This document shows positions 19,088-64,000 of a DNA stretch of 64,000 nucleotides, piece by piece. Origin of the DNA: an uncultured candidate division Zixibacteria bacterium (lineage in GTDB: Bacteria; Zixibacteria; MSB-5A5; GN15; FEB-12); contig CAWDXE010000001.1 in the NCBI GenBank assembly GCA_963806185.1, positions 416,001-480,000 of the forward strand, written 5' to 3'. Both the position numbers and the translations under genes were made by a program. The notes under the pieces were generated by a model. It saw only the letters and a program-made list of their open reading frames with translations, made no database searches and had not been told where the DNA came from. The number at the start of each line of letters is the position of its first letter. The stretch's first letter is position 1.

Positions 19088-19458
19088 ACTGCCTCCTGAC
19101 ATTGTTTGGCCCTCAAACGATTGCGCGCGCCGACCTAAGGCCGGAAACCAATGGAAACAGGCCGCCACGTTGAGACGTGGCGTCAGTCCATTTGCGATAT
19201 ATGATCAACACCTATTTCGAATTTAGAAGGAGGGCGAAGAAAATCCGCCGGTGATACAGTTACAATGTAAGCGAAAGCCTGCGCACGTCAAGGATAAAAT
19301 GGACCCGAATACATTGCGATGCCGCACGGCAACCGCATCCGATTGAGCGGCTTGGAGTAAACGTCCATAAACATTCGCAAAATTGAGCAGCCCCCCGGCG
19401 AGTTAGCTTCGTTGCACTTACGCCCCTGGAACGAGGGCTTGAGAGAACGCCGGCAATA

Positions 19459-19512: not shown

Positions 19513-20922
19513 TCAGGGCGTGTATCTTTTCTTGAACTCCTCGGCCGCTTTCTTTCGCGCCGCCTTGACCTCTGCCGGCTCTTTGCCTGTGAACCACCTG
19601 TGGGCATCCATGTCGAGCATTTTCAATACGAGTTGTTCAACCTCTTCAGCCGCCGCTGCTCTGGCTCCTCCGGATGCCTTGGCCCGCTCGATCAATTCCC
19701 TGGTTTGGGGGATGAATTCCATGTAGAATCGCTGGGCCACCTCGAACATCCCGTGCCACTGCGTGTAGTCGGGAGCAAACATCGCCGTGCCCATGCGGGC
19801 GCGCCGACCCTCATGGTGCCACAGCAGGTAGTACGTCCACTCCAACTCCTCGTCGAAGTCGGTGTCCGCGGTAAGGAGTCCGGCCGCTCGCAGCTTGGTA
19901 TAAATGGCCGTGGCCGGTTGGGCGAACTTGTCGTTATACATGCCAACGAGACTGTCGTACTGCTGGTAGAAATTGTCGACATAGCTCGACGTATGGCAAT
20001 TGCTGCAGACCAACTTCATGTCGCCACGGCGAGCTTCCCACGACTTCACTTGTTTACCCGCTTTGATCGCGGCGGCATCGATCTTTTGCGACACTGCCGG
20101 CCGAAGTGTCCAGCTGATCCTCGCTCCCACGTCATGCGTCAACGGCAGGTCCTTGGTCGCGGACATATGACAGGTTGCGCAGGTGGGAGCGGCAGAATAA
20201 TCGATCCCCACCACCCACGACGCCGAGGACAGATTCATCCGATCGATGTTTGCATAGTAGGCGATCCCGTGTTTGGACTCCTCGTAAATCTCTTTCTGGG
20301 GATGATCAGGGCCGAGGTGGCATTTGCCGCAGTTCTCCGGCTGTCGCGCCAGCGCGGCGTCAAACGAGTGGCGACTATGGCAGGCGGCGCATGAGCCCCT
20401 GGACCCATCCGGATTGATCCGACCAATCCCCGTATTCGGCCATGTGGCGGGGTCGAGTGTCTTGTCATCATTGATCTTGATTTCCGAACCGTGGCATTGT
20501 TTGCAGCCGCTGATGGCAGCCATCGGACCTTCAACTACTTCGCCCAGCATGTTGTCGAGCGAACCGAGAATTGTCCCGGCTGCGGCATGGTGCGATGCCT
20601 CGAACTCATTGAACTCATTCACGTGGCACTTCGCACAATCCTTGGGCGATACGATCACCGAAATCGTGTACCCGTTGTGGTCGACGGCATCGAGATCCTT
20701 CGGGTCGGCGGCGTGGCATTCGTAACATCCGACATCCGCTCCGTAATGGCGGCTGTGCCGCCATTCTTTGACCAGTCCCGCCATGTCCGGTTCGTGGCAG
20801 GTGATGCAGGCCGTAGATTGTTCTGAAAGTGCTGTCGGCACCATCCTGTCCGCTCGGACAGACAGTGTCATGCAGAGAATCAACAGCCCAATTGACACGG
20901 ACCACTTACCGTCAAATCTCAT
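19513..20922 (-). CDS. Octaheme cytochrome c, hydroxylamine oxidoreductase family
   Basis: Eight CxxCH motifs; NTGIGRINPDGS.G.C..CH.RH.F, CH.GPDHPQ.EIY.ESKHG, HHEGRRARMG..PDYTQWHG. Confidence 0.92.
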   Translation of the reverse strand: MRFDGKWSVSIGLLILCMTLSVRADRMVPTALSEQSTACITCHEPDMAGLVKEWRHSRHYGADVGCYECHAADPKDLDAVDHNGYTISVIVSPKDCAKCHVNEFNEFEASHHAAAGTILGSLDNMLGEVVEGPMAAISGCKQCHGSEIKINDDKTLDPATWPNTGIGRINPDGSRGSCAACHSRHSFDAALARQPENCGKCHLGPDHPQKEIYEESKHGIAYYANIDRMNLSSASWVVGIDYSAAPTCATCHMSATKDLPLTHDVGARISWTLRPAVSQKIDAAAIKAGKQVKSWEARRGDMKLVCSNCHTSSYVDNFYQQYDSLVGMYNDKFAQPATAIYTKLRAAGLLTADTDFDEELEWTYYLLWHHEGRRARMGTAMFAPDYTQWHGMFEVAQRFYMEFIPQTRELIERAKASGGARAAAAEEVEQLVLKMLDMDAHRWFTGKEPAEVKAARKKAAEEFKKRYTP

Positions 20923-47761: not shown

Positions 47762-50700
47762 CTACTGACACGCCGGCAGCGGCGCGAAGGTGATGAACAG
47801 GTTGTTGATCAAAGCTGTCAGGTCGCCGATGTCGATGCCGCCTAATCCGTCACAATTGGCCTCCGGCTCGCAGCAGAGCGGCTCAAAGGTGATAAACAGG
47901 TTGTTGATCAGTGACGTCAAGTCGCCAATGTCAACACCATCACCTTCGCTGCAGTCGACATTTCCAACTACGGCAATACAGCAACTGGCACTCGGTCCGC
48001 CCACGGCCAACCAACCAAGATCGGTCATGCCGGTCGCCGATACCGTGTTGGCGGCTGTGTCTACTACGGTAGCTGCCACTGGACTCCACGTGGAGCCGCT
48101 ATCGCCACTGCGATAGAGTATCAATGTCGCTTCCGTCACACCATTCAACTCGCCATCGACATAGTGGAACACGACTGCGGCGTTCGCGCCTGTCTTCACC
48201 GTCGGTTTGACGGCGAAGTGTCGCTTAATACTGGGGCTGCCGCCGACCGTCAAAGACGTACCCGTGACGCGCGTAACCTGCGTAGAACCCGGCGCTGTCC
48301 CGGCCGCGGCTATTTCGAGGCCAAGTCCGCCAAATAATTCCGGCGTCCCGCTCGCAAGCGCTCTCGTCGTGCCAACCCGGCCCTGGACAACCCAAATGGA
48401 GTCCTCGACAATTGTCGCCGACGGTGCAAGCGTCACCGCAAAGGCTTCCGTTGAAAGAACGCTGTCGGCCAAATGTAGTTGGCCATTGACCGTCACATTG
48501 CTGCCCAGTTTCACCCCCTTGTTGCCAAGGATGCGCAGATCGCGAAGAGCCGTTGCCGACACAGGCAATTCCGGACCAGTCGTCACTGAATCGACCGAGC
48601 TGATATACTCGACATCAACGACGCTGTCGAAAACAGGTGCCACGGTCAGCGAACCAGTAGCTCGACGAAGGGTTGACTGCTTCGCCATGTGCAGCGCCTT
48701 ATCGTCGGATGAACCGTTATTGTCGAACGTCCCCATTGAGAGAGTTAGATCGCCGTTAACTGTCGCATTGGTTCCGAGCGTTACCGTCTGGCCCGACGAA
48801 TAGATGGTCAGATCTCTCAGCGTCGTAGTCGCCGTCGGCAGTTCCGGGCCGGTGGTGACGCCCGTTGTCGAACTGGTGTAGCGGACATTAACCACGCCCT
48901 CAAACTGCGGCGCCGCCGCTATCGTACCGGTCGCCCGGCTGATCGTCGCACCGTTCCCCAGTTTCAGATTGGCCGTACCCGCACTGTTGTCGATCTGGCC
49001 GGAAGTCATGCGCAACAGACTGTCCACCCGGATCGTCTGCCCGCTTCCCGCCAGCACCAGAATAGCGCTGTTGTTCACTTCCAGACTGTCACTCACCAAC
49101 CGATTGTCGGTCAATGTCCAGGTCTTCTTCGTCCCGTTGCCGGCAAAGCTGAACTCGATATCCCAATAGTTGGTGTCGATCACCACCTGGTCGGTGGTGG
49201 CGCTGGACGGGTTGCGCTGATACCGCACCCGGCCATCGTTGACCAGCGTGGGAGGAAAAACGGTCGTCGACGATGTGGTTTTGTAGATGCCCCCGCGCGA
49301 CAGGATGACCACCGAAGTGTCAAACCAGATGTCCGAAGTGGTCTCCTGGAGCAGTATCCCCGCCGAGTCGACGGTGATCGTTCCGGGGTTGAACATCGCT
49401 CCGCTGGTGGTTGTCCCCAGACCGGTGTTGAGATGGAGCGTCCCCCCCGGCTTGACATTGATGTTGGCCAGACTGATGTCGGACGAACTGGCATCGATAA
49501 ACTCAGCCTCGCCATAAATCGTCATCGGCCCGATCGGTGCCGAGCCGGTGTTGGAGCGGACCCAGTGCGATCCGGTACCATCGACCAGGTGGAACTCTGC
49601 TCCCGGCTGGACGGTAATGGTCAGCTGTTGATCGGCGGTGAAATTGCCCGACGAACTCCAGCGTGACTCCAGATCGTCGTCAATCGCCAACAGGAAACTG
49701 CCGCTCTTGACGTCGAGACTGTGCTGAATCCCCAGACGCATGCCCGTACCGGCGGTGCTGACCGTGACGGTGGAGTCCTTGGCGATAATCAGATCACGGA
49801 ACGAGGTTGACCCCGCGCTGGTGCTGAAGCCGGAGATGACAGCCGGAGCGCTGCCGGCGAAAACGACGTACGCGCTGTCGGATGACCAGCCGGCGGAAAA
49901 GACATTGTGGGTTTCGGAGAAGAGGGTGAAATCGCCGTAAATGGAAAGACGACTCTTGGCGTTAAGATCGATCAGCGCGTCGGTGCCGCCGAAGGTGACC
50001 GACTTGCACATCGCCAAGGTATCGTCTACTGAAATCGTATGGCCGGCCAGAATCATCACGTCATCGTCAGCCGTCGGAATGACCCCGCCCAACCAGGTCG
50101 TAGGAGCGGTCCAGGAGCCGGATTGAGCCGAAATCGACTGACCGGAAAGAATGAGGCCGCTCAGGGTCCAGCGCGAGAAGGCATTGACGCCCGCCAGAGT
50201 TACCGTATTGGCGAGAGTGTCGCGCGTACCGCCGCGCAGTATCCAGGTCGCGCCGTAGTCTGAGGATGCGTACAACACCAGAGTGTTTTCGTCCAGTCCA
50301 TTGAGATCGGCCTGGTCGTACGTAAACACCATCGTGGCATTCAAAGCGGTGTTGTTTGCGGGTGAGATGTCAAAGTAACGAGAAACACTTGGGCTGCCAG
50401 TTAATCACCTGGGGCTGGCCCGTGACTCGCGTGACGTTGGTCACACCCGGCACACCGCCGGCGGCATTGATTGAAATGCCCAGCCCACCAAACGTTTCGG
50501 CCGTCGATTGTGCCATTGTCCGCGAAGTGGCGATGTTACCGAGGACGCCAAAACCGTTGGTTTCGGTCAGGGTGGCGGTCTGAGCAAGGGTCAATGTGTA
50601 GCCATCGGTCGACAGATCGCTGCCGTTGACAACAACTGCACCGTTGACGGTGGCGTTGCTGCCGAGAGTCACACCTTTGTCGCCGGTAATGGTCAGATTG

Positions 50701-53318
50701 CGAAGCACGGCGGTTCCCGTCGGAATTTCAAAGGCAGTGATAGCCGGACTGACGGTGCTGATGTATTCCACATCCACGACTCCGGCAAAGCCGGGGGCCG
50801 CTGTCAGAGCGGCTGAGGCCCGCCGAATAGTTGAACCGTCGGCCATATTCAAAGTGTAGTCGTCGTCCGCACCGTTGTTATCAAACGTGCCGGCGGAGAG
50901 GGTAAGAGCGCCGTTTACCACCGCGTCGGCGCCAAGCGTTACGATCTGGTCGCTGGTAAATATCTGCAGGTCGCGCAGAGCGGAGGAGGAAGTCGGCAGT
51001 TCTTTGCCGGTCGTCACAGAAGTTGCGCTGCTGGTATATTTTACGTCGCATACGCCCGCAAACGACGGCGCCGAGGTCATGGTGCCGGTGGCTCGAGAGA
51101 TTAGACTGCCATCGGCCATGCTAATGGTCACGTTCCCACCCGTATTGTCCAGGGTGCCCGAAGTGAGACGGAGGGTGTTATTGATAGTCAGCGTCTGGGC
51201 CGAGGCCGCGCTCGGATAAACCGTGGCGCTATTATTGACTATGAAGCTGTCGGTAACCATGCGTGGTGCCGTCAGGGCCCACAGCTTACGATGGCTTCCG
51301 CCGGCAAAGCTGAATTCTACGTCCTTGTAATCGCGATCCACGACGTTCTGATCGGACGCCGTCGAAGGGTCGCGCTGATAACGTACCTTGCCGTTATTGG
51401 TGAAATTCGTCGGAAAGATGGTCGAACTTCCGGTCGTCTTGTACGTGCCGCCGGGATTTAAGATCACGATAGACGTATCAAACCAGAGGTTGGACGTCGA
51501 GGTGCTGTAAATGTTTCCTCCGGAGTCGACAGTAATCGTTCCCGGATTGAACATGGCGCCGCTCGTGGACGTATAGAGACTCAATCCCAGTTCCACGGTA
51601 CCGCCCGCTTTTACATCGATTCCGGCGATACTGATATCCGACGAACTGGCGTCAGTAAATTCCGCATAACCGTAGACGGTCATTTTTCCGATCGGTACCG
51701 AACCGGTATTTGACCGAATCCAGTGGACGCCACTGGCTCCGTCATTGACTAACCGGAACTCGCCGTTCGGCTCCACAGTGATTTTCAAATTCTGGTCGCC
51801 GGTCAGAGCCGCACTGCTCGCCCATCGGGCTTCCAATTCGTCGTCCGTTGCCAGGACGAACTTGCCGCTCTTGATATCCAGACTATTTTGGATACCAAAA
51901 CGACAATTCGTGCCACTGGTTGTGAGCACTGTTCCGGAGTCCTTATCGACGATAATATCCCGGAACGCCGTGCATCCAGCGGAAGTGCTCCATCCATAGA
52001 GAGTCTGCGTCGCACCGCCGGCGAACCGGACAAAGGCGCTATCGGACGACCACCCGGCCGAGAATACATTGTGTACCTGACTGAACAGCGTGAAATTGCC
52101 ATAGACAGACAAGGTAGACTTTGCGTTGAGATCGATGTGGGATGCAGTGTCACCAAATGATATCGACTGGCATTCCGCAAAATTGTCGTCGATGGATATG
52201 GTGTGACCAGCGGCAATCACCACCGGATCATTCATGGTCGGAACGATGCCGCCGGCCCAGGTGACGGCTGATGACCATGAACCGGATTGGGCTGACGTAA
52301 TCTGTACGTCGGGAGCAAATGTCTGCGCCACCGCATCGGCCAGTTTGTACCAATTGGCCTCGGTGTCGCGAAGTTTGGCGTACGCCTGTTCGAGATGAAG
52401 GAACTGGCCCGTATTCGCAGTTGCCGCCTGATCGCACGGGTCAGCCGACCCGTTGATCAGTCGTCCCTGCACATTATCCTGACCGAGGTAGTAGTTGTAG
52501 GCCAGGTCCACGTGCGCGATCTTGAACGTCAGCGTGTTGTCTTGCAGTAGTAGCTTTGCCTTGAGTGGGGCCAGGTACTCGGTCGCAGGAGTCAGCTGGC
52601 TGCCGTTGCTCATGATAATATCCGGGTCCTCAGCGCTGTAATCCCCCTTGGTATACCCATGAGGCTGGATGACGATGGCGTTGCTGCGGTAGGCAAGCAG
52701 CTCCTCAGTGGTAATCTCAAATGTCGCGCTGGAGGCATGCGCCTGATCGCCGAGGCGATACGGCTCGGACGAATCAGCACACGAAGTAGAGGTCCCGGAA
52801 CATGGAGAATAAGAAGTGGAATTGCACTTGTGAGCGCCGGCCAGGCAGAAGATCCAGGCGTCGGCGGTGGTGTATACTCGAATCGACTGATTGCCTGTAT
52901 TCAGATTCTGCAGGGGATGAGGCGCCTGAATGACCAGGCGAGACCGGCTCGGGCTGGGATTGAATACGAATGTACCCCAGTAGTTGGTCGTGGAGCCGGG
53001 TGTCCGTTCGAGCACCCAATAGACCTGATCAATCACGGGCGGCGTGTCGGTGAATTGCACCACTCGATAGTCGATCGTCCCGGCGAGAGTATGGGCGGCC
53101 GCGTGATCACCACTCAGCATCGCCTGAATAATCTGGCGCCACGTCTGAGTCCCGGTGGTAGTCGGTTCCACATACTTGTCTTGATCGATCCCCGCATCGG
53201 TCGGCGACGCGGCGATAATTGAGTCGATGTGACTAGTGATACTCCCAGTCATCGTGACCTGGCCGCTCGCGCTGGCGCAGATCAGCATCAATGCGATGAG
53301 CATTAACCGGTGATACAC
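47762..53318 (-). CDS. Giant secreted protein: putative Zn-hydrolase domain, two G8-like/beta-solenoid modules and dockerin-like tail; split by +1 frameshift near 50399
   Basis: ORFs 50370-53459 and 47762-50344 join as VINGSPSVSRYFDISP when one base is removed; GTG start after AGGAGG. Confidence 0.8.
48807..50047. repeat. ~1.24-kb near-identical duplication, copy 1
   Basis: Matches 55709-56949; three substitutions seen by eye. Confidence 0.95.
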
Positions 53319-53455
53319 GCTGACATTCCTCCTGCCGGTATTAGATACCAGCCCTGCATATTTCCAATGAATAAGTTCTGGTGAATAGGCTCTCGACGTC
53401 GCCCCCGTCCGGATCGACGTCTTCCGTTCGACATGTCCCTTTCGCGTCGCTAATA

Positions 53456-54517
53456 TCATGGCGTGAACTCAAAGAGGGTTGTGTCGTATGTGTAGTGCCT
53501 CAGCGCGGAGGCAGTAGCCGGCGACTGGGACTGCAGAAGTTCAGCCACCGCGTCGATTTCCGTCTGGGTCAGTTTCGCGCGCGACGCAACAGCCACCGCG
53601 ACGGTCGTTGCTGTGTCGGATTCACACTTCAAGCCGTCAGAAAACGCGTTCGCCATTGCCTCATTGGGATCGACAATCGCCACGCGATACCCCAATTGCG
53701 CATGAAACGCGCTGTCAAATTCCTTGCGGGCATAGCCGTAGTGCGTGCAGCAGAGTGCCACCACTGCCTCGCCACGATTCTCCGGACCGCGCTTGCTCAA
53801 AGCCTCCTGCACGTACATGCTGATCAGGCTATTCACGATGTCGCTCGCCGGATCAGTCTGAATCTCCGACTCAAGATCCTCGCAGGCCTGCGTCACGATT
53901 CGATTCGCGGGAATTCCGGACTGCTCGAGGCCGCGTTGGTGAGCCTCGGATTGAATGGTCGTCGGCGTCCCCATGATGATTGCCCATTTCGAACTGTCGC
54001 TTTCCAGCTCCTCTCGCAAGGGAGCAACGCCGAAATCGACAATCCCGGCGACCGGCACCGTGCCCGTCGAGGCAAATTCCGTTGCCGGATAGACAACCGA
54101 TAGTGTATTGCAGGCGATGAGAATAATGTCGGGATGATACTTTTGGGTGAATCCGCTCAGCGCTGAGGAGAAGACGCGGGCTTTTGACCCAAGGTCAGGC
54201 ATTCTGTTGTACAGATGCTCGTTGTCGGGTAACGCGTTTGCATAGACGAGATCGACCTTGGACCCCAGCGAACAGTCACGCAACCGTTGTTCGATTGCGG
54301 CCGCCACCGACAGACCCCCCAGACCTGAGTCGGTAATGACGATGGTCACGCGGTCTTTGTGAAACAAAGCGGCGATCGCACTGGAAAGGCTGCGATCGCC
54401 AAGAACTGCGTTGTCGCTAAGAGCAGAGAGAAGTGGCCAGGTCGTGACGATCAACGCCAACACTGGGATTCGACAAAACCAATGGGAAACTCGGGTTGTC
54501 TGTCGCCCCTGCCTCAT
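53456..54517 (-). CDS. Glutamate racemase (MurI-like) with N-terminal signal-like extension
   Basis: DSGLGGLSV, IACNT, MGTPTT, CTHY; both catalytic Cys motifs present. Confidence 0.88.
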   Translation of the reverse strand: MRQGRQTTRVSHWFCRIPVLALIVTTWPLLSALSDNAVLGDRSLSSAIAALFHKDRVTIVITDSGLGGLSVAAAIEQRLRDCSLGSKVDLVYANALPDNEHLYNRMPDLGSKARVFSSALSGFTQKYHPDIILIACNTLSVVYPATEFASTGTVPVAGIVDFGVAPLREELESDSSKWAIIMGTPTTIQSEAHQRGLEQSGIPANRIVTQACEDLESEIQTDPASDIVNSLISMYVQEALSKRGPENRGEAVVALCCTHYGYARKEFDSAFHAQLGYRVAIVDPNEAMANAFSDGLKCESDTATTVAVAVASRAKLTQTEIDAVAELLQSQSPATASALRHYTYDTTLFEFTP

Positions 54518-54877
54518 TTGGCGCTTCGCATTCTGACCGAAGATTCGGCCGTCTCAGTGCTGTTGATCCAGTGCAGACGCCTCTCGCGGCTCTGCTGATT
54601 GCCACCGTTTTAGTACAGCCCTATGGCACCCCCTACACACGACGCAATGCACCGTTAACTGGATGGCTTGTGCGCCCTCCAAACCACGAGGCGGAAATTC
54701 TTTCTTAGGCTGTAACAATTTCCATGCCAGTATTTTGGCTGCTGATAGACAACGACTTAAGTGGGCTGATGGTGGACACCGATGACCAGTTCGGGCTGTT
54801 TCCGCACGCTCTGTCGTCCGGAATTAGCCCATTAATTGTGGCAATTTGATCAGGTGAAGAGAACCAGCGCGACGATA

Positions 54878-54904
54878 CCGCCCGACCTATGGTCGGGCGG
54901 CTAC
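54878..54904 (-). repeat. GTAG-type REP-like palindrome / hairpin
   Basis: GTAG-CCGCCCGACC-ATA-GGTCGGGCGG on the minus strand. Confidence 0.55.
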
Positions 54905-54936
54905 GTTGCTGGATAATCAGGAGATGCAGAGGATTG

Positions 54937-57900
54937 TCAATTGCTGCAATCAGGGAGCGGTGCGAACGTGATGAAGAGGTTATTGATCAAAGCAGTAAGA
55001 TCCCCGATATCGATCCCGCCAACTCCGTCGCAATTTGCTTCACCGTCGCAACAGAGGGGTGCGAAGTCAATAAACAGGTTATTTATGAGACTCGTGAGGT
55101 CGCCGATATCAACCCCGTCATCTTCTGAGCAATCGACATTTCCGACTGTGCCAACGCAACAACCCAAATCTGCCGTTCCGAGCGTCAGCCACCCAAGTCG
55201 ATCAAGCCCCGAAGCGCTCACAAAATTCCCCGTGGTGTCGATGACACCAGGAAGTGGATTCCAGCTCGCTCCTGAATCCAGGCTCTGATATAGTCCAAGT
55301 GTGGCCTCGCCCAGACCATTTAATTCCAATACTCCGTAATGGAACACCACCGCGGCATTCAAGCCGCTTGTGACACTCGGGTCACCTGTATAGTAGCGTA
55401 AAATGCCGTTGCCGGTGGACAGCGTCTGGGCTGTGCCGGTGACTCTCATGACATGTGTTGAACCGGGAGTTGTGCCGGCGGCCGTAATTTCCAGACCAAT
55501 GCCGCCGAAATTCTGCGTCACACCCTGGTTAATTGTCCGCGTCGTTTGCACACGTCCCCAGACTGACCATAATGAATCTTCGATTAGAGTAGCCGTTGGC
55601 CCCAGCGTCAACGTATAGGCACCCGTAAGGAGGGACGAGTCGGCAACGTGAACAGTCCCACTTGCAGTTGCGTTCGCGCCCAAACTGATACCTTTGGGAG
55701 TAGCAACAGTCAGATCTCTCAGCGTCGTTGTCGCCGTCGGCAGTTCCGGGCCGGTGGTGACGCCCGTTGTCGAACTGGTGTAGCGGACATTAACCACGCC
55801 CTCAAACTGCGGCGCCGCCGCTATCGTACCGGTCGCCCGGCTGATCGTCGCACCGTTCCCCAGTTTCAGATTGGCCGTACCCGCACTGTTGTCGATCTGG
55901 CCGGAAGTCATGCGCAACAGACTGTCCACCCGGATCGTCTGCCCGCTTCCCGCCAGCACCAGAATAGCGCTGTTGTTCACTTCCAGACTGTCACTCACCA
56001 ACCGATTGTCGGTCAATGTCCAGGTCTTCTTCGTCCCGTTGCCGGCAAAGCTGAACTCGATATCCCAATAGTTGGTGTCGATCACCACCTGGTCGGTGGT
56101 GGCGCTGGACGGGTTGCGCTGATACCGCACCCGGCCATCGTTGACCAGCGTGGGAGGAAAAACGGTCGTCGACGATGTGGTTTTGTAGATGCCCCCGCGC
56201 GACAGGATGACCACCGAAGTGTCAAACCAGATGTCCGAAGTGGTCTCCTGGAGCAGTATCCCCGCCGAGTCGACGGTGATCGTTCCGGGGTTGAACATCG
56301 CTCCGCTGGTGGTTGTCCCCAGACCGGTGTTGAGATGGAGCGTCCCCCCCGGCTTGACATTGATGGTGGCCAGACTGATGTCGGACGAACTGGCATCGAT
56401 AAACTCAGCCTCGCCATAAATCGTCATCGGCCCGATCGGTGCCGAGCCGGTGTTGGAGCGGACCCAGTGCGATCCGGTACCATCGACCAGGTGGAACTCT
56501 GCTCCCGGCTGGACGGTAATGGTCAGCTGTTGATCGGCGGTGAAATTGCCCGACGAACTCCAGCGTGACTCCAGATCGTCGTCAATCGCCAACAGGAAAC
56601 TGCCGCTCTTGACGTCGAGACTGTGCTGAATCCCCAGACGCATGCCCGTACCGGCGGTGCTGACCGTGACGGTGGAGTCCTTGGCGATAATCAGATCACG
56701 GAACGAGGTTGACCCCGCGCTGGTGCTGAAGCCGGAGATGACAGCCGGAGCGCTGCCGGCGAAAACGACGTACGCGCTGTCGGATGACCAGCCGGCGGAA
56801 AAGACATTGTGGGTTTCGGAGAAGAGGGTGAAATCGCCGTAAATGGAAAGACGACTCTTGGCGTTAAGATCGATCAGCGCGTCGGTGCCGCCGAACGTGA
56901 CCGACTTGCACATCGCCAAGGTATCGTCTACTGAAATCGTATGGCCGGCAGAGATGACAACATCATCAGTTGGGCCGGGCACGAGGCCGCCGATCCAGGT
57001 GTCGGGATCAGTCCAGCTCCCGCCCTGGGCGGTGCCGAAATTGATGTGTGCGGGAAACGTCGCGGCAATCGCATTGGCCAGTTTATTCCAATTGGCCTCA
57101 GTATCTCTCAAACCCGTGTATACCTGTTCCAGGTGAATGAAGCGTCCGGTCGTTGAGGTGGCCAATGTGCCACATGGATCGGCGCTGCCGTTTATCAGCC
57201 TTCCCTGGGTATTATCACGGCCTATCAGGCGGTCCCAGGTCATGTCGACATGCGCGACCTTGAACGTGAGAGTCGCATCCTGGAGCAGCAGATTATCACG
57301 CAATTGGATCGCATAGTCGTCGATGGGCGTATACCTGGTGCCGTTACTCATGATGATATCCGGATCGCCTGCCTCGGGCGAGAAGCCGTGCGGCTGGATA
57401 ACGATGAGATTCGGAATCGGGGTCAGCATCTCTTCCATGGTTACCTGAAATGGTCCCAGCACAACATGAGCCTGATCGGAGTAGCGATAGTTGTCGTAAG
57501 TTTCCGAACAGGCTGTCGTGGTGCCGTCGCACGGGGAAGCTGTGACGCCGTTGCACCGATGCGTACCGGAAAGAAAGTAGGCCTTGGCGCCCGTTTTGCG
57601 AAAGGCATGAAACCCCTGTTGTCCGGTCTTACGATCGTGCAGAGGATGCGGGCACTGAATGACCAGCGTCGGCCGCCAGGGTGATGGATTGAACACGAAC
57701 GTGCCCCAATACCGTGACGCGGATGTCGCTTGCCGTTCCAGAATGTAATACAGTTTGTCGGGTGTGGCCACGGTGTCGGTGAACGCGGTGACCTGATATT
57801 CGATAGACTCGCCCAGCGAGTCGGCGACGGCATAATTGCCATTGAGGATATTCTGGATAATCGACCGCCACAGCGTACGCGACGACGCCCCCGGTTGAAG

Positions 57901-58044
57901 GTAAAGCCCCGAAGGAGTTGCATCCGGGATCACTCCGATCAGACTGTCGATGTGCTCGGTAATGTCGCCGTTGACCACCACTTGTCCCGAAAGACCGGCA
58001 CTGATCAACAAGAATAGGAAGGCGAAGCTTAGGATGTGTTTCAT
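54937..58044 (-). CDS. Secreted protein: putative Zn-hydrolase domain, one G8-like/beta-solenoid module and dockerin-like tail
   Basis: MKHILSF start after GGTGAG; PHPLHD, GTHRC, SDQAH, QPHG motifs; paralog of 47762-53318. Confidence 0.85.
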   Translation of the reverse strand: MKHILSFAFLFLLISAGLSGQVVVNGDITEHIDSLIGVIPDATPSGLYLQPGASSRTLWRSIIQNILNGNYAVADSLGESIEYQVTAFTDTVATPDKLYYILERQATSASRYWGTFVFNPSPWRPTLVIQCPHPLHDRKTGQQGFHAFRKTGAKAYFLSGTHRCNGVTASPCDGTTTACSETYDNYRYSDQAHVVLGPFQVTMEEMLTPIPNLIVIQPHGFSPEAGDPDIIMSNGTRYTPIDDYAIQLRDNLLLQDATLTFKVAHVDMTWDRLIGRDNTQGRLINGSADPCGTLATSTTGRFIHLEQVYTGLRDTEANWNKLANAIAATFPAHINFGTAQGGSWTDPDTWIGGLVPGPTDDVVISAGHTISVDDTLAMCKSVTFGGTDALIDLNAKSRLSIYGDFTLFSETHNVFSAGWSSDSAYVVFAGSAPAVISGFSTSAGSTSFRDLIIAKDSTVTVSTAGTGMRLGIQHSLDVKSGSFLLAIDDDLESRWSSSGNFTADQQLTITVQPGAEFHLVDGTGSHWVRSNTGSAPIGPMTIYGEAEFIDASSSDISLATINVKPGGTLHLNTGLGTTTSGAMFNPGTITVDSAGILLQETTSDIWFDTSVVILSRGGIYKTTSSTTVFPPTLVNDGRVRYQRNPSSATTDQVVIDTNYWDIEFSFAGNGTKKTWTLTDNRLVSDSLEVNNSAILVLAGSGQTIRVDSLLRMTSGQIDNSAGTANLKLGNGATISRATGTIAAAPQFEGVVNVRYTSSTTGVTTGPELPTATTTLRDLTVATPKGISLGANATASGTVHVADSSLLTGAYTLTLGPTATLIEDSLWSVWGRVQTTRTINQGVTQNFGGIGLEITAAGTTPGSTHVMRVTGTAQTLSTGNGILRYYTGDPSVTSGLNAAVVFHYGVLELNGLGEATLGLYQSLDSGASWNPLPGVIDTTGNFVSASGLDRLGWLTLGTADLGCCVGTVGNVDCSEDDGVDIGDLTSLINNLFIDFAPLCCDGEANCDGVGGIDIGDLTALINNLFITFAPLPDCSN
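55709..56949. repeat. ~1.24-kb near-identical duplication, copy 2
   Basis: Matches 48807-50047. Confidence 0.95.
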
Positions 58045-58112
58045 GTTCTCACCGGTTATGCTCTTGCTACACGTTTCTGAGTCTTCATATATATCGACGC
58101 GCTCAGCCACAT

Positions 58113-59231
58113 TCACTCTTCGTGGCCGAAAGTTTTTTTGTTCGCCACAGCAGGGTGGGTTGATTGCGCCCGCAGTGTGCGGTTTGCTCTCACTCGAACC
58201 CCCAGCAGAGCGGCACATATAGCCGCCAAGCCAACAGCAGGCCCGATCGGGTTGGCCACCCGGTCGAAGTAGAGATCAGTCGATTCGGGAATCTGATTCC
58301 CCGGCGCTACCGGCAAGCCAAACCGGGCCGCCAGATCTTTGATGTTGAGCAAATGAACGATGGGGATATTCCGCTCGGCAAGGCGCACAAGTAGGCCGCG
58401 CTCTTCATCCTGACAGCCGCTCCAATGCTCATGATAACCGTTTGGTATGGAGAGTTCGTGACCGCAACGCCCCATGGCCGCCTGGTTGCCGCCAATATTA
58501 ATGACGAGACTCACGTGCTCTTTCACGAGCAGATTGGTCTTTGCAAGAATCGACTCCTGCAACGATCCGGGATGGTACACTGTGACGTTACACCTCACGG
58601 CCGCCTGTTTAAGAAGCAGAACGCCTTCGTCAAGCATGCCGCCGCCGTTGTCGTTCTCACCGCCTAACGACACAATCATTGAGCGGTACTTCAGCCCGGC
58701 GTTGTCCGCTAACCACTTCTCCATATCGATCCAGGTTGCACCAGGCTGATTCGCACCGTATGCGGACGCCCCGAGCGACGAAAAAACTATCGCCTTCGCG
58801 CCGACTGTCTGTACCGCCGCCAACGCGGCGATACTCAGGGTAGGAAATGACCCGGAGAGCACTACTCCCACGGTGGAAGTGGAGTCAATGCCTGCCTCCT
58901 TCAGCCACCGAACCACCAGTGCGGCGAAGTCGGGGTTGGCCGCCGTCTCTTTGGCTTCCAGCGATCCAAGCGTGGTTGTGGTTGATGTAAAGTCATCGCC
59001 GATCAGAGCATTGTAGTGCGTTGTTGATCGACTGTCGGAAACTATCTGCTGAGAAGTCTTAAGCCGTTCTATCGACTCGAACCATTTGGCGCAGAGAACG
59101 GAAGCCTGCCGCATCTCAGTTTCGAATGGCAGACGATCAGAGGTGAACGATACTTCGTTTACGATCACGACTGCCGCAATAGAGATCAGCAGTACGAGAG
59201 CCATCCACAATGTGCTTATAGGCCGTTTCAT
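58113..59231 (-). CDS. pgsW: Poly-gamma-glutamate system protein
   Basis: LIG..F...TTTLGSLEAK..A.NPDFAA, SGSFP, SSLGAS.YGAN.P..TW.DME, INIGG; adjacent to capC. Confidence 0.88.
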   Translation of the reverse strand: MKRPISTLWMALVLLISIAAVVIVNEVSFTSDRLPFETEMRQASVLCAKWFESIERLKTSQQIVSDSRSTTHYNALIGDDFTSTTTTLGSLEAKETAANPDFAALVVRWLKEAGIDSTSTVGVVLSGSFPTLSIAALAAVQTVGAKAIVFSSLGASAYGANQPGATWIDMEKWLADNAGLKYRSMIVSLGGENDNGGGMLDEGVLLLKQAAVRCNVTVYHPGSLQESILAKTNLLVKEHVSLVINIGGNQAAMGRCGHELSIPNGYHEHWSGCQDEERGLLVRLAERNIPIVHLLNIKDLAARFGLPVAPGNQIPESTDLYFDRVANPIGPAVGLAAICAALLGVRVRANRTLRAQSTHPAVANKKTFGHEE

Positions 59232-59235
59232 AACT

Positions 59236-59664
59236 TCATCGTATCAGCACAATTATCAGGAAGGTAATAGCACTCACCACGCCGAGCGCGGCGGCGGTTT
59301 TCACGAAACCCTGGCGTGAGGACTCGTTGGCGATTAGTCCCGGAATGATGTAGCCGATCGACTGCATATTAAGCGGGAATCCTGCGAAGGGCTGAAACTG
59401 CATCTCAATCCCTACCTTAATGCAGAAGCCGAGCAGAACAGCCAACAGCAGGCGACGTCGTCCGTACAGAATGGCGTGACGCGAAAGGAAGAGCATGATC
59501 GCCCACACTGCCGCCGCGAGAAGCAGGGTGATCGCAATGCGGCCGGGTTCGTAAACATAGAGCGCACAATAGGCGGGGGCGATTACCCCGCCCGGAGAAA
59601 TGTCGGTCAATTCATAAAACAGAAAGCCGACTACCAGCCCGATGAAAAAGTACTCAAACAACAT
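59236..59664 (-). CDS. capC: Poly-gamma-glutamate biosynthesis protein CapC/PgsC
   Basis: SPGG.I.P.Y.AL, ILYGRR, IGYIIPGLIAN...RQG. Confidence 0.93.
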   Translation of the reverse strand: MLFEYFFIGLVVGFLFYELTDISPGGVIAPAYCALYVYEPGRIAITLLLAAAVWAIMLFLSRHAILYGRRRLLLAVLLGFCIKVGIEMQFQPFAGFPLNMQSIGYIIPGLIANESSRQGFVKTAAALGVVSAITFLIIVLIR

Positions 59665-60809
59665 CGGCGCTCCCGGCCCGTAACGTGACCAACAACAGAT
59701 GGCCATCGCCGCCGATGTTCCCCAGCCCCATCACCAGGTGCTGCGGAGAAATGCCCAGTCGGGCCAATTCCTGTTGGCTGTCGCGAATCTGCCTGCGCGT
59801 CCAGCTTACCACGGCTCCGCGAGGACATCCCGCCGAAATCAGGGCCCGGCGCATGTACGGGGCGTGACTACCGATAACGATCACATGGCTCAAGTCTTTG
59901 AGGGTCGGCATGAACTTCGAGAACAGGGTCGATCGGAGCGGCCGGTCTGCGCGAGCATTGAATACTACTGTCAAGTGCGTGGTTTCAGGATAGCGCGAGC
60001 GCCAATATGCGATGAACTGCCCGGCGGACGTCACATCATTGACCGCAAACCCATTGACAAAGGGCACACCATGATCAATCGTGAAGACATCGGGTCGACT
60101 TGCTTGAACCGCTTCGGCTACAATTGCCGGATATGCTATTTCCGATGTCACGCCGCTTGCCTGACATGCCGCCAACGCCAGCGCCACGTTGACGGGAAAG
60201 ACCCCCTCGGGAAGACTGTCTGACTGCTCTGACCGCAAGTCAGGGACCACCGTTACCCGATTGCCCAGCCTGGCCGCCCGGGCTTTGAGTGGTTCCACAT
60301 GCGCGCCCGCGGCGGTGATAACCATTGAGCCGGGAGTCATCGCCCCACAGGGCGGCAATCTGCTGTTCGGTATCGTTACCCAGTTCTTCGCGATGGTCGT
60401 CCAACACATTGGTGAGCAGGTATATGTGCGGTCGAAATACTCGGGCTTCGACAGCTTGCAGATCCGGTCGGATTGACATGCACTCCAATACCAATGCGTC
60501 CGCACTCCCGCGGGCAGCGCGCAGAATAGTCTTGAATTGCTCTTGAACTCTGGCGCCGCTCCGGCGTATGACGGGGACAGACGACCCATCCGGGCGGATC
60601 AACGTCGGTGTGATGCCGGTGATCTTGGCCATCGTCTTTCGACCGCCGGCGCGAAGTCCCGCCGCTATGTATCTGGTGACACTAGACTTGCCACGGGTAC
60701 CGTTCACATGAATACGAATAGACAGGCGGTTGGCCCTGTTTCGGACAACCGTCCCCTCAACGAATAATAGAATCAAGACAAGAATCAACAAACCAAGAGG
60801 TATCATCAT
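59654..60809 (-). CDS. capB: Poly-gamma-glutamate synthase CapB/PgsB, split by a 1-bp frameshift near 60345
   Basis: RIHVNGTRGKSSVTR, AK.TG, LECM..P.LQ, TNV..DH in one frame; FVNGFA.ND, N.RADR.LRS, GLGNIGG in the next. Confidence 0.9.
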
Positions 60810-60844
60810 GTGGGTACAGTCCGGAGCACGTTCGCTCGCTCAAG

Positions 60845-62784
60845 TCAATATCCGATAGCCACCCCTCCGCGGCGCTTGTCCGCCGAACCGTAGTAGGTGC
60901 CCGTCGCCTGATCGACGACGATCACTTGTACGCCGCCGAAGAACAGATCCTGGCCCTCGTACCGGCGTATCGTGTGTCCCATCCGTTCCAGTTCGGCGCA
61001 CACCGTGTCGCCGATGCCTCCCTCGGTAAAAAGAAAGTCCTCGAATTTCTCGCAGAAAAATCTTGGCGCGGCATTCGCCTCATCCGCATTCATGTGGAAA
61101 TCGATGACGTTGACCATGACTTCCACCACGGTGCAGATGATTCGGCTGGCTCCCGGTGATCCGACGACCATGAGGGGCTGACCATCTTTCAGCACGACCG
61201 TGGGACAGATCGAACTGCGCGGCTGTTTGTTCGGCTCGACCAGATTGGGCGTGGCCGACTCGGAGAAATTGGACATGCCGCAGTTCAGGAGTACGCCTTC
61301 GGCAGTGATCCCGGATCCAAAAAACGTTCCCAGCGTTTGCGTCAGGGCGACCATGTTACCCTCGCCGTCAATCACTGAAAGGTGGGTCGTATGACCGCCG
61401 TCGTATCCGTTGTCATCCGGAGTCTCGTTGCCATCGCCCGTCGTGTCGCTCGGCGCTTCTTCGGGATTCGCCGGTCTCTTTTCTTTCACGGCCGCGCCAC
61501 TCTTCTTGCCGCCCAACTATCGAACATGTTCTCGTCGAATCCACCGCGGTTGGTGCCGGACTCGTCCAGCCCGTCGTCCCACCCTTTGGCGGTCTTTCCG
61601 GATTGCACACGACTTCCGCCGGCGGACGTCCGGCTCTGATCGAATGGCTCCGGATTCCCCGCCTGGGTGAGGCGGTACTGTTTTGGCTCGGCGCGGTACA
61701 GGTTGATGTCGTCGACGCGTTGGCGAGCGTAGTCCTTGTTGATGATGCCATCGACCGGCACATACGTAAACTGCGGATCGCCGAGGTACTGCCAACGGTC
61801 AGCATAGCTGCGTCGGAGAGTCTCGGCCATGAAGTGCAGAGTCTTCGCCGAGGTGCTGAAGTGCCCCATTGCCGCGATGTTTTCATTTTCGAGCATATTA
61901 AGTGACTGGATAATGGTCGAACCTGACTGCGGCGCGGCGGCGGAGATGATTTGACACCCGCGATATGTTCCCTCGACCGGTGCGAGAAGCTCAGCCTTGT
62001 AGTTGGCCATATCGTCAATGGTCAGGGCGCCACCCAGTTCGGTGACCCGCTTCACGATCCCTTCAGCGACCGGTCCGGTGTAGAATCCTCGCTGGCCCTT
62101 TGCGGCGATGATCTTGAGTGTATTGGCCAAATCCGGCTGGCGGAGCGTGTCGCCTTCCATCCTGGGAAAACCATCAGCCAGAAATATCGCCGCAGTGGCT
62201 GAGTCGCTCTGGATCGTCTCAAGATTATCGAGCATCAGTTGTGCCAGCGTAGCGTCGACGGGAAAGCCGTCGCCGGCCAACCGAATTGCCGGCTCAATCA
62301 CCTGCGCAAGAGGAAGACGCCCAAACTGTTGCAGGGCCTGGGTCAATCCGGCCACTGTCCCGGGTACCAGAATCGACTTGGCGGTCGTCCGATCTTTGTC
62401 TCCGCGATAGTCGATGCGGTCGATAATGCCGGACGTGCGATGATAATAGTTGATGTACGACGACCGCTTGGTGTCGTTCATGTATATGACCATGCCGCCG
62501 CCGCCGCCCAACCCCGAACCATCGGGCTCGACAACGCCGATGGCAAACGCCGCGGCGACAGCGGCGTCGACGGCGTTACCGCCCTCTCTTAGCACTTCAA
62601 GCGCGGCTTGAGAGGCCAGCGGATGAGCCGTGGCCACCATTCCCTGCTTGCCGGTGGCCATATCTGTTGCCGCCGTCTGCGCGAAAAGACCTGACGGCAT
62701 CGCCCCTGCCAGTATCAGGAGACTGGCGATAACCGCCACCAGCTGATAGGTATGTCTCCGCTTATTCATGTGCTTCATCTCCAT
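60845..62784 (-). CDS. ggt: Gamma-glutamyltransferase (CapD/Ggt family), split by a 1-bp frameshift near 61513
   Basis: GMVA.AHPLAS.A..GGNAVDAA, SGLGGGG, VPGTVAGL; small subunit TTHLSVID..GN, KQPRSS, GSPG, D.RR.G. Confidence 0.92.
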
Positions 62785-62837
62785 AAATCACCAGCATTCG
62801 GGCGCAGCGGCTTTCGAACGGTCGCAACGCCGCCTGT

Positions 62838-63470
62838 TTACTTCTTAAATATCTGGCCCAGCGGCGTCGCCACGTCGGCAATTTTCACCACAACGTCGAT
62901 CGGAATCTTCTTCGCTTCCGCGATCTTCGTGAAGTATTTATCCTCGTCCCCCTGAGCAACCACAACGAGTCGCTCAGAGTCCGTCGCCGCCACTTTACAG
63001 AAATCGTCCGACTGGCCGCCGCGCCGGGCGGAACCGCCGATGTGAACGGTCACAATCGGAATCTTCTTTTCCTTGGCCGCCGCGACGAGGGCGACCACAC
63101 GATCCATTTCATCCTTTTGGCTCACACCGGCCGCGCCAAGGCCTTTGGACGAGAACCCCGGAACGATCACCAGTGTCTTGACTCCTTCGAGATCAGCCGA
63201 TTTGGCCATTCCCACAACCTTGGCGTCAAGTTTCTGCTGTTTCGCCAACATGCCGACCAATTTCACGTCGGCACTTTGTCCGGCGGAAGTGATCAGGATC
63301 GGCTGTTCGAGCGCGGCTTTCTGCTGCTCCTGTGCCACAACGGTCAGACCGCACAGCATCACAATCGCCAGGACGATAATACTACCCGGTAGATTCTCCG
63401 TGCGAGACTTTGTATTCTTAGATTGTTCATTTATGTCGTACTCATTATCGCAAATAGTGGCCGATCCCAT
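62838..63470 (-). CDS. Exported DUF6305-like protein (start uncertain)
   Basis: PILITSAGQSAD, G.SSKGLGAAG, VHIGG.ARRG. Confidence 0.75.
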   Translation of the reverse strand: MGSATICDNEYDINEQSKNTKSRTENLPGSIIVLAIVMLCGLTVVAQEQQKAALEQPILITSAGQSADVKLVGMLAKQQKLDAKVVGMAKSADLEGVKTLVIVPGFSSKGLGAAGVSQKDEMDRVVALVAAAKEKKIPIVTVHIGGSARRGGQSDDFCKVAATDSERLVVVAQGDEDKYFTKIAEAKKIPIDVVVKIADVATPLGQIFKK

Positions 63471-64000
63471 TGCTTATCACCTCATCATAGGACGGCAGCC
63501 CGCCGGTCACAATACTTTTGTCCGGATACATCTCTGAATAGGCGCCAAGGATCGCCTGGAAACCCTGCAAATGGCGCCCCACCCGCAGATCAAGCGGCTC
63601 ACCCTCGGGAAGATATTCAATACGCAGCTTTCCGGATTCCAGCGCGCGTTTATACTCCTCGCTGACGCCATACAGGATCAACTGCTCATCGGTCTTGCCG
63701 CGCAGTCGCCCCTGAATAGGGTTGCTGGTCTCCATGAGGAACGGCATGACGTCCGTCCGGTCTCCCCATTCACGATGGCTCAGGCCGCGAAAGCTCTCCG
63801 GCGATGATTCGGGTGAATAGCGAAGGTCGGACATTTCCAGATTCAGCACCGCTGCGAGGGCAACATCTTCTCCTTTGGGATGGTATACGATCGCATTGAT
63901 AATAGGTATCTCCGGTGCGGCTTCGTGCAGGTCGAACGCTACATCGACGTTCTCCTTCTGGATCAGTTGCATGATTGCGTAAGCGACTTTTTCGGTGAAA
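63445..64000 (-). CDS. Succinylglutamate desuccinylase/M14-like deacylase (5' end outside window)
   Basis: DLHEA.PE.P.INA.V.H, RGLSHREWGD, METSNP.QG.LRG; adjacent to the DUF6305-like gene. Confidence 0.7.
   Translation of the reverse strand, partial: FTEKVAYAIMQLIQKENVDVAFDLHEAAPEIPIINAIVYHPKGEDVALAAVLNLEMSDLRYSPESSPESFRGLSHREWGDRTDVMPFLMETSNPIQGRLRGKTDEQLILYGVSEEYKRALESGKLRIEYLPEGEPLDLRVGRHLQGFQAILGAYSEMYPDKSIVTGGLPSYDEVISNGIGHYLR

Follow-up and report, generated by a model that had tools for sequence, protein, structure and literature searches.

A conserved capBC gene block of Zixibacteria with candidate secreted hydrolases, a predicted exported racemase, and a possible role in poly-gamma-glutamate turnover

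Among described poly-gamma-glutamate (PGA) systems, those closest to the locus reported here are pgsBCAE of Bacillus subtilis, with pgdS and ggt, and capBCADE of B. anthracis. They likewise use the CapB and CapC families and, in the accessible text of two papers, a secreted gamma-glutamyltransferase (GGT) and an endo-hydrolase tied to the polymer (PMC4497714, PMC3815933). Cloacimonadota carry a three-gene operon of capB, capC, and pgsF (bioRxiv 10.1101/2025.11.11.687785, accessible part), and in such Gram-negative operons, including that for PGA in Fusobacterium nucleatum, capB and capC are also joined by one further gene without capA. PGA-degrading enzymes are divided into three classes, GGT/CapD, PgdS, and PghP, in the available portion of PMC6506827, and it has been speculated that PghP-like genes allow non-producers to feed on PGA (PMC4497714, available portion). 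Here, we describe a capBC gene block in a stretch of 64,000 nucleotides (the window; G000:C1:416001-480000) of an uncultured Zixibacteria bacterium, whose genome assembly (G000) is 82% complete and comprises 8 contigs. The gene run is real and conserved, and is apparently an undescribed variant of the capBC system. We lean, with slightly better than even confidence, toward a block that makes PGA, cuts it extracellularly, and recovers the glutamate.

The block differs from the Bacillus systems in that a TIGR04332 protein stands in place of CapA/PgsA and the hydrolase is a domain of zinc-exopeptidase fold, not the CHAP/C40 type of PgdS. In addition, it contains a predicted exported racemase, an M14 enzyme, a DUF6305 protein, a DctM-like permease, a barrel-like protein, and sigma-54 regulators. 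Compared with the Gram-negative three-gene operons, it has a divergent capB and about ten extra turnover, transport, and regulatory genes. The first-pass annotation of the window did not recognize this combination as described, and the literature searched, with subscription papers largely and supplements outside its scope, likewise yielded no description of the block or of the hydrolase family; the operon maps in Fig. S12 of the Cloacimonadota study may bear on novelty. No paper was found in that search on TIGR04332, DUF6305, or Zixibacteria with dockerin.

Linkage of the turnover genes to a divergent capB

The capB genes in a sample of 201 genomes of the phylum were typed by their TIGR04012 score. 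As a result, 33 genomes passed the profile (cut-off 222.7 bits), 26 of them at 409-469 bits (common type) and 7 with intact orthologues at 231-262 bits (divergent type); the gene is split in G000, where both halves score below the cut-off owing to a frame break. DUF6305 was detected in 8 of the 201 genomes, exactly those with low-scoring capB plus G000. The hydrolase domain of the two giant proteins (two copies each) and the exported racemase occurred in the same 7 genomes, all with divergent capB, and in none of the 26 with the common type. The gene order was kept in G012, G045, G048, G080, G138, and G174, some of which are interrupted by contig ends. The linkage of giants and racemase to capBC in other genomes, by which the first-pass annotation had proposed to judge its reading, was thus found. 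In the common-type loci examined (9 of the 26), capB-capC-TIGR04332 stood without the turnover module, an arrangement that resembles the Gram-negative three-gene operons. Two secreted-looking genes without a Pfam match follow TIGR04332 in common-type loci (L016:3069-5137, L105:11969-14027, L107:5735-7708), and both are absent from the extended type with divergent capB.

Outside this sample, 73 loci of the hydrolase domain were obtained from the best 80 of 237 GTDB stretches, some of which are the same records as the phylum genomes. capB and capC lay within 10 kb of the domain in 15 of the 73 loci, including loci titled Ignavibacteria and Eisenbacteria, and all 15 belonged to the set of 40 loci that are non-Flavobacteriaceae and at least 10 kb long. 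Where capBC was not nearby, three of the four genomes tested from such non-Flavobacteriaceae loci held capB elsewhere. Loci of several phyla have the domain immediately after TIGR04332, and ggt directly precedes capB in all the synthase-linked loci examined, except L034 and L095.

The synthase genes appear intact in the relatives. All motifs of the divergent capB, including that for ATP binding, were kept in the alignment, capC adjoins capB and matches TIGR04011 above its cut-off, and both capC and the TIGR04332 gene were intact in all 8 divergent-type genomes examined. TIGR04332 was present in 7 of the 60 relatives searched; the name pgsW for this gene comes from the first-pass annotation and is given by no profile match. 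Its structure model (predicted local distance difference test, pLDDT, 90) consists of terminal helices and an alpha/beta core and gave no Foldseek match at E 0.001, the best Z score being 8.2 among Rossmann-like folds; because no close structural relative was found, no function was drawn from the model. As the first-pass annotation had stated, capA is absent from the window: PF09587 had no match there or in G000 (82% complete), and none in 5 relatives that are 95-99% complete, among them 4 that carry the block.

A predicted secreted hydrolase-fold domain in two genomic settings

The N-terminal domain of giant 1, 312 amino acids in length, matched no Pfam family at E values up to 1, PF05013 included, and a sequence search of solved structures gave no match for this domain, TIGR04332, or DUF6305. 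A structure model of the domain was obtained at pLDDT 96.9. The structural search returned N-formylglutamate amidohydrolase (FGase)-type proteins first (2odf, Z 12.4, root-mean-square deviation (rmsd) 3.6 over 188 residues; 2q7s, Z 11.8, rmsd 3.1 over 187), followed by PghP (3a9l, Z 11.2, rmsd 4.0 over 173 residues), a carboxypeptidase B (Z 10.9), and PghL/YndL (5onj, Z 10.5). Foldseek supports the same superfamily (PghP, E 3e-4). The best structural matches are thus of the FGase family (PF05013), from which the domain differs in being secreted and multidomain and in lacking a PF05013 match, and the loci examined are not those of histidine utilization.

In an alignment of 265 rows, H113 was conserved in 265, D117 in 259 (Glu in 4), H173 in 264, and H199 in 265, and E286 in all 261 rows with a residue at that position. 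The zinc ligands of PghL are His41, Glu46, and His102, and Glu165 is catalytic (PMC6506827, available portion). In the model, a His follows the first core strand, His-Gly ends a later strand, and Glu ends the last strand, as in PghL; the order and strand-end positions of the conserved residues are consistent with the PghL ligands and catalytic Glu, of which they are candidate counterparts. R293 was conserved in 258 of 260 rows, and H173 and R293 are candidates for PGA contact by order alone; Thr-Ser after H173 was not seen in the alignment. The domain likely works like a zinc glutamyl-amide hydrolase, in keeping with the first-pass view of the giants as putative hydrolases, which the modeled fold and the conserved metal- and catalytic-type residues support.

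PghP and PghL/YndL (PF05908, MEROPS M86) share with the domain the fold and the order His, acid, His, His-Gly, Glu. However, the domain has no sequence-level match to them, carries H-x3-D instead of H-x4-E, and has conserved Cys pairs within its 312 amino acids; it is secreted with dockerin-like, type IX secretion system (T9SS), or fn3 partners and is cellular and synthase-linked, not phage-derived. Membership of PF05908 was considered and rejected, since there was no profile match and the profile-profile probability was 1.1% despite the likeness in fold; the PF05908 profile also had no match in G000 or G012. The nearest Pfam-named Atlas cluster was PF05908 at 0.84, which is a lead only. A search of representatives gave only close members among the matches listed, with no bridge to PghP or FGase. 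The family comprises 776 clusters at 50% identity with E below 1e-30, and 368 homologues are of similar length, most among those listed carrying a T9SS C-terminal domain.

Two further observations concern related enzymes. Some loci titled Ignavibacteria have, between DUF6305 and ggt, an FGase-like gene with a weak PF05013 match (L040:4239-5156, L095:6759-7679), which, judged by sequence, may encode another enzyme of this fold class. In the phylum of genome G215, the hydrolase profile matched 22 of 301 genomes; the match was strong in 7, and there was also a more distant subgroup, often carried by proteins of 940-960 amino acids.

The second setting was found in 23 loci grouped by record title as Flavobacteriaceae-type (including one each titled Bacteroidota, Flavobacteriales, and Algicola), 20 of which are at least 10 kb long. 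These 20 loci contained SusD (18), SusC (17), an amidohydrolase resembling D-aminoacylase or N-acyl-D-glutamate deacylase (15), and M14 (12), and more rarely glutamate racemase (5), GGT (3), a GltP-like symporter (2), and M23 (2), and a MocR- or FecR-type regulator accompanies the SusC/SusD genes. Adjacency to SusC/SusD is shared with the utilization loci of Bacteroidota, with the difference that the partners here are glutamyl-acting peptidases, deacylase, racemase, and GGT, not glycoside hydrolases. The partner enzymes were typed further on one example each: the amidohydrolase was nearest to D-aminoacylases and N-acyl-D-glutamate deacylase, the M14 enzyme to CCP-type carboxypeptidases (deglutamylases), and the racemase and symporter to glutamate racemase and GltP, respectively. 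capB was found in none of the 23 loci, and none passed the cut-off in the 5 genomes tested. In a tree of 46 domain rows, the SusC/SusD-linked rows lay on one side of a branch (100/98) and the capBC-linked rows on the other. A protein of 381-384 amino acids without a Pfam match follows SusD in 13 of the 20 loci (L055:8668-9810, L068:8217-9368) and is a candidate surface binding protein.

One setting has the synthase and the other lacks it, and both point to glutamate. The N-terminal domain of the giants could define a large family, as yet unnamed, of secreted endo-hydrolases of gamma-PGA, serving two-membrane producers, which would reclaim their polymer with the help of the exported racemase, and synthase-free Flavobacteriaceae SusC/SusD loci, which would eat it; we hold this tentatively, at a little short of even confidence.

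Composition of the block and its neighbors

All nine genes reported by the first-pass annotation were confirmed; they lie on the minus strand and follow the stated order from 64,000 to 47,762 (Table 1). They form the distal part of a larger block that begins upstream of the window with a propeller protein, the barrel-like protein, the DctM-like permease, and a 48-amino-acid membrane protein, followed by the M14 deacylase, DUF6305, ggt, capB, capC, TIGR04332, and the giants and racemase. A divergent sigma-54 two-component pair, a sensor kinase and an NtrC-type activator, adjoins it.

Table 1. Features of the gene block within the window
Feature	Position	Strand	Evidence and remarks
M14/AstE-type zinc deacylase or carboxypeptidase, 3' part	63445..64000	-	PF24827 E 1e-6; gene start outside window
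DUF6305 protein, hydrophobic N-terminus	62838..63470	-	PF19823 E 2e-49; start codon uncertain, homology from 63383; alignment of 13
Predicted exported gamma-glutamyltransferase (ggt)	60845..62784	-	PF01019; frame change near 61,500; N-terminal hydrophobic stretch, HTTHLS nucleophile motif
capB/pgsB amide ligase, divergent type	59654..60809	-	TIGR04012 on both halves; frame change near 60,350; GTRGKS, ECM, DH motifs
capC/pgsC membrane subunit, 142 aa from ATG at 59664	59236..59664	-	TIGR04011 113.5 bits (cut-off 96.45); PF14102
TIGR04332 poly-gamma-glutamate system protein (pgsW)	58113..59231	-	276 bits, cut-off 100; N- and C-terminal helices flank alpha/beta core
Giant 1, 1035 aa	54937..58044	-	Signal-like N-terminus, hydrolase-fold domain, G8-like start and beta-rich module, dockerin-like C-terminus
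Hydrolase-fold domain of giant 1, 312 aa	57049..57984	-	H113, D117, H173, H199, E286 and conserved Cys pairs
Glutamate-racemase-family protein, signal-like N-terminal extension	53456..54517	-	PF01177; TIGR00067 below cut-off; ACNT and CCTH catalytic-type Cys motifs
Giant 2, ~1850 aa as single gene in relatives	47762..53318	-	Second hydrolase-fold domain ~52302-53261, two beta-rich modules, dockerin-like C-terminus; frame change near 50,400

The upstream DNA, which the first-pass annotation had suggested inspecting for capA or transporters, holds transporter-like genes and no capA. The DctM-like permease matched its family at E 1e-3 in G000 and at 3e-6, over the cut-off, in G012, and the DctP and DctQ families had no match among the block proteins scanned. 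The 452-amino-acid protein has no family match, a signal-like start, and a C-terminal Phe, and on these features looks like an outer-membrane barrel; its upstream neighbor is a 618-amino-acid propeller/IPT protein. The 48-amino-acid protein, which has two helices, is conserved in all 12 loci examined (L001:2582-2728, minus strand), flanked by the permease and M14 genes and away from capBC; it is a possible small subunit of the permease or an analogue of PgsE. Ahead of the first gene, a TGGCA-N7-TTG site could be aligned in all 10 loci compared, and scans for sigma-70 promoters and terminators gave results at chance level. Between the divergent genes, most of the 10 loci also contain a conserved GGGC...GCCC / GGGCTAA-TATAGCAC element (L001:7250-7700), which is a candidate binding site for the activator.

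The racemase scored 53.6 bits on TIGR00067 (cut-off 146.65), and a housekeeping MurI is encoded separately at G000:C4:91791. In the 40 sequences aligned, of 120 homologues listed, D63-S64-G65, C136-N137-T138, C257, and H259 were invariant. A hydrophobic N-terminal extension was present in 107 of the 120 by our own hydrophobicity rule, applied without a negative control set, which is consistent with the export proposed by the first-pass annotation. The GGT and M14 enzymes keep their catalytic motifs and hydrophobic N-termini. The intact ggt orthologue of G012 scores above the cut-off of TIGR00066, the ordinary GGT equivalog, and none of the tests run marked it as an anchoring enzyme of the CapD type. 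The M14 gene encodes 372 amino acids in G012, its HPNE, NLNR, DLHE, and Glu motifs and hydrophobic N-terminus are kept in 5 relatives, and its nearest solved structures are DoeB/EutE and AstE/AspA-type deacylases.

The dockerin-like tail of giant 1 matched PF00404 below the cut-off (E 0.056), and the same position in the G138 homologues passed it (E 2e-10 and 1e-14). Such tails occur at about 86 places in G000, cohesin-like domains (PF00963) were over the cut-off in 4 of 4 genomes, and relatives in other phyla have a T9SS C-terminal domain instead; for these reasons, the tail is likely a sorting or attachment module. Giant 1 shares 66% identity with its G080 orthologue across the whole length, and the two open reading frames (ORFs) of giant 2 match residues 1-973 and 966-1851 of the G080 protein at 69-70%. 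A 1.3-kb segment (window 55709-57016 and 48807-50114) is 97.9% identical in DNA between giants 1 and 2, compared with 66-75% for the long matches of one giant to the other in five relatives, which reflects either recent gene conversion or an assembly artefact. An extra 835-amino-acid protein with a beta-rich module and tail and without the hydrolase domain was found in relatives (L097:8250-10754, L022:11709-14219, L026:14446-16950); the beta-rich module may serve in polymer binding or as a stalk.

Four frame breaks affect the block, in ggt, capB, and giant 2 within the window and in the M14 gene just beyond it, and none was covered by the one read run examined (0.05 share). They are most likely assembly errors (indels), because the homologues are single ORFs in relatives and rpoB of G000 is in 11 pieces, compared with one each in G012 and G080. 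Pseudogenization was rejected on the grounds that rpoB, in the same assembly, has far more breaks.

Elsewhere in the window, positions 2741-6838 encode a protein of 1365 amino acids that combines kinase-like, TPR, GAF, and sigma-54 activator domains, adjoined by an FG-GAP sensor kinase and another NtrC-type regulator. Genes for a DUF7901 protein, whose C-terminus is dockerin-like, and for a multiheme cytochrome lie at 16967-19168 and 19513-20922.

Proposed function and alternative explanations

The following scheme is inferred from the genes present, their order and conservation, the motifs that remain intact, and the modeled fold class. CapB would ligate glutamate in the cytoplasm, and CapC, with TIGR04332 replacing CapA, would pass the chain outward. 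The two giants, secreted and held by the dockerin-like tail, would cut the polymer, their own or that of a neighbor, into oligomers with their zinc domains. The oligomers would cross the outer membrane, probably via the barrel-like protein, and be trimmed to glutamate by the exported GGT and M14 enzyme. The exported racemase would interconvert the freed D- and L-glutamate, and the DctM-like permease with the 48-amino-acid protein, perhaps together with DUF6305, would return glutamate to the cell. Expression of the block may be driven from a sigma-54-type promoter by the divergent sensor kinase and NtrC-type activator. Since CapB acts in the cytoplasm (PMC7490850, accessible part), an exported racemase suits recovery better than supply. 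The first-pass annotation had proposed a PGA capsule pathway with remodeling or recycling; the upstream transporter, barrel-like, and regulator genes and the synthase-free Flavobacteriaceae loci move the reading from a capsule to synthesis plus turnover.

Several points weigh against synthesis plus turnover. The support comes from sequence and models. PgsBC alone yielded no polymer in Escherichia coli (PMC7490850, accessible part), so the proposed synthesis step hinges on a putative role of TIGR04332. In G009, the core is present without giants or racemase, and neither capB nor capC lies within 10 kb of the domain in 25 of the 40 loci that are non-Flavobacteriaceae and span at least 10 kb. The genomes are kin and the SusC/SusD-linked rows lie on one side of a single branch; therefore, the two settings count as two contexts, not dozens. 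With regard to the domain, FGase-type structures (Z 12.4 and 11.8) are tied with or above PghP (11.2), and carboxypeptidases are near (10.9). A profile-profile comparison with nine phage PghP proteins aligned only the first motif, at the low probability given above, and the HxTS and Arg (Arg171) substrate contacts of PghP have no clear sequence counterpart. GGT and racemase occur only in a minority of the Flavobacteriaceae-type loci, and the M23 peptidase in 2 of the 20 fits peptidoglycan. Finally, the barrel-like protein has no family match and is read from sequence features, and the strict -12 GC of sigma-54 promoters is found in only 1 of the 10 loci.

Some of these points would suit a different substrate. 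The synthase may make PGA, with the hydrolase and its partners directed at a different glutamyl amide, for example the gamma-D-Glu-diamino acid of peptidoglycan peptides or N-acyl-glutamates, the capBC linkage then reflecting a shared D-glutamate economy. FGases as top fold matches, the D-aminoacylase-like and M14 genes (weak MpaA matches) and occasional M23 of the Flavobacteriaceae loci, and the M23 borne by several synthase-linked proteins at other loci are consistent with this possibility. It is nevertheless considered unlikely, as the domain comes right after TIGR04332 in several phyla, its occurrence in the phylum sample exactly follows one type of capB, the Flavobacteriaceae neighbors scanned showed no match to an amidase or glycosidase family, and the M14 enzyme there is nearest to CCP-type deglutamylases.

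The position of ggt directly before capB also recalls the Bacillus capBCADE system, in which CapD is a GGT-family anchoring enzyme (PMC3815933, accessible text). Such an anchored capsule, with GGT attaching PGA, the giants trimming or releasing it, and the racemase setting its D/L ratio, is rather improbable here. The GGT passes the ordinary equivalog, capA was found in none of 6 genomes searched, and a permease and deacylase are part of the block. Moreover, with CapB in the cytoplasm, an exported racemase would feed it only through uptake, and anchoring to peptidoglycan would give no surface capsule in a two-membrane cell.

A third explanation, to which we assign a similarly small chance, is that the block mainly scavenges foreign PGA and that its divergent capB-capC-TIGR04332 makes only short or periplasmic chains, kept unexported as a store or inducer. 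The far lower TIGR04012 scores of the divergent capB, the absence of the two conserved genes that follow TIGR04332 in common-type loci, and the use of the same domain in synthase-free uptake loci agree with it. However, the capB motifs are all kept, capC and TIGR04332 are intact in the relatives, and the barrel-like protein could export as well as import. Decay of the locus into a non-working state in the source genome, to which the four breaks (three in the window) lacking read coverage might point, is highly improbable given the far more fragmented rpoB, the absence of an in-frame stop pattern or of truncation beyond single frame changes, and the high identity to relatives on either side of each break.

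In summary, synthesis plus turnover remains our preferred reading, and the block supplies candidate parts for PGA export, cutting, racemization, and uptake together with a new hydrolase family. Of greatest value are the unnamed secreted hydrolase family and the synthase-free uptake locus in culturable bacteria. The domain is encoded in an uptake locus of named, cultured Flavobacteriaceae (records titled Polaribacter glomeratus, Salegentibacter agarivorans, and Flagellimonas aequoris), and the reading is therefore directly testable. If it is true, the hydrolase may differ from PghP in D/L preference, and the uptake locus would be a polymer-utilization locus for a polyamide, not a glycan; a predicted cutter in synthase-free Flavobacteriaceae uptake clusters would mean that PGA is eaten there.

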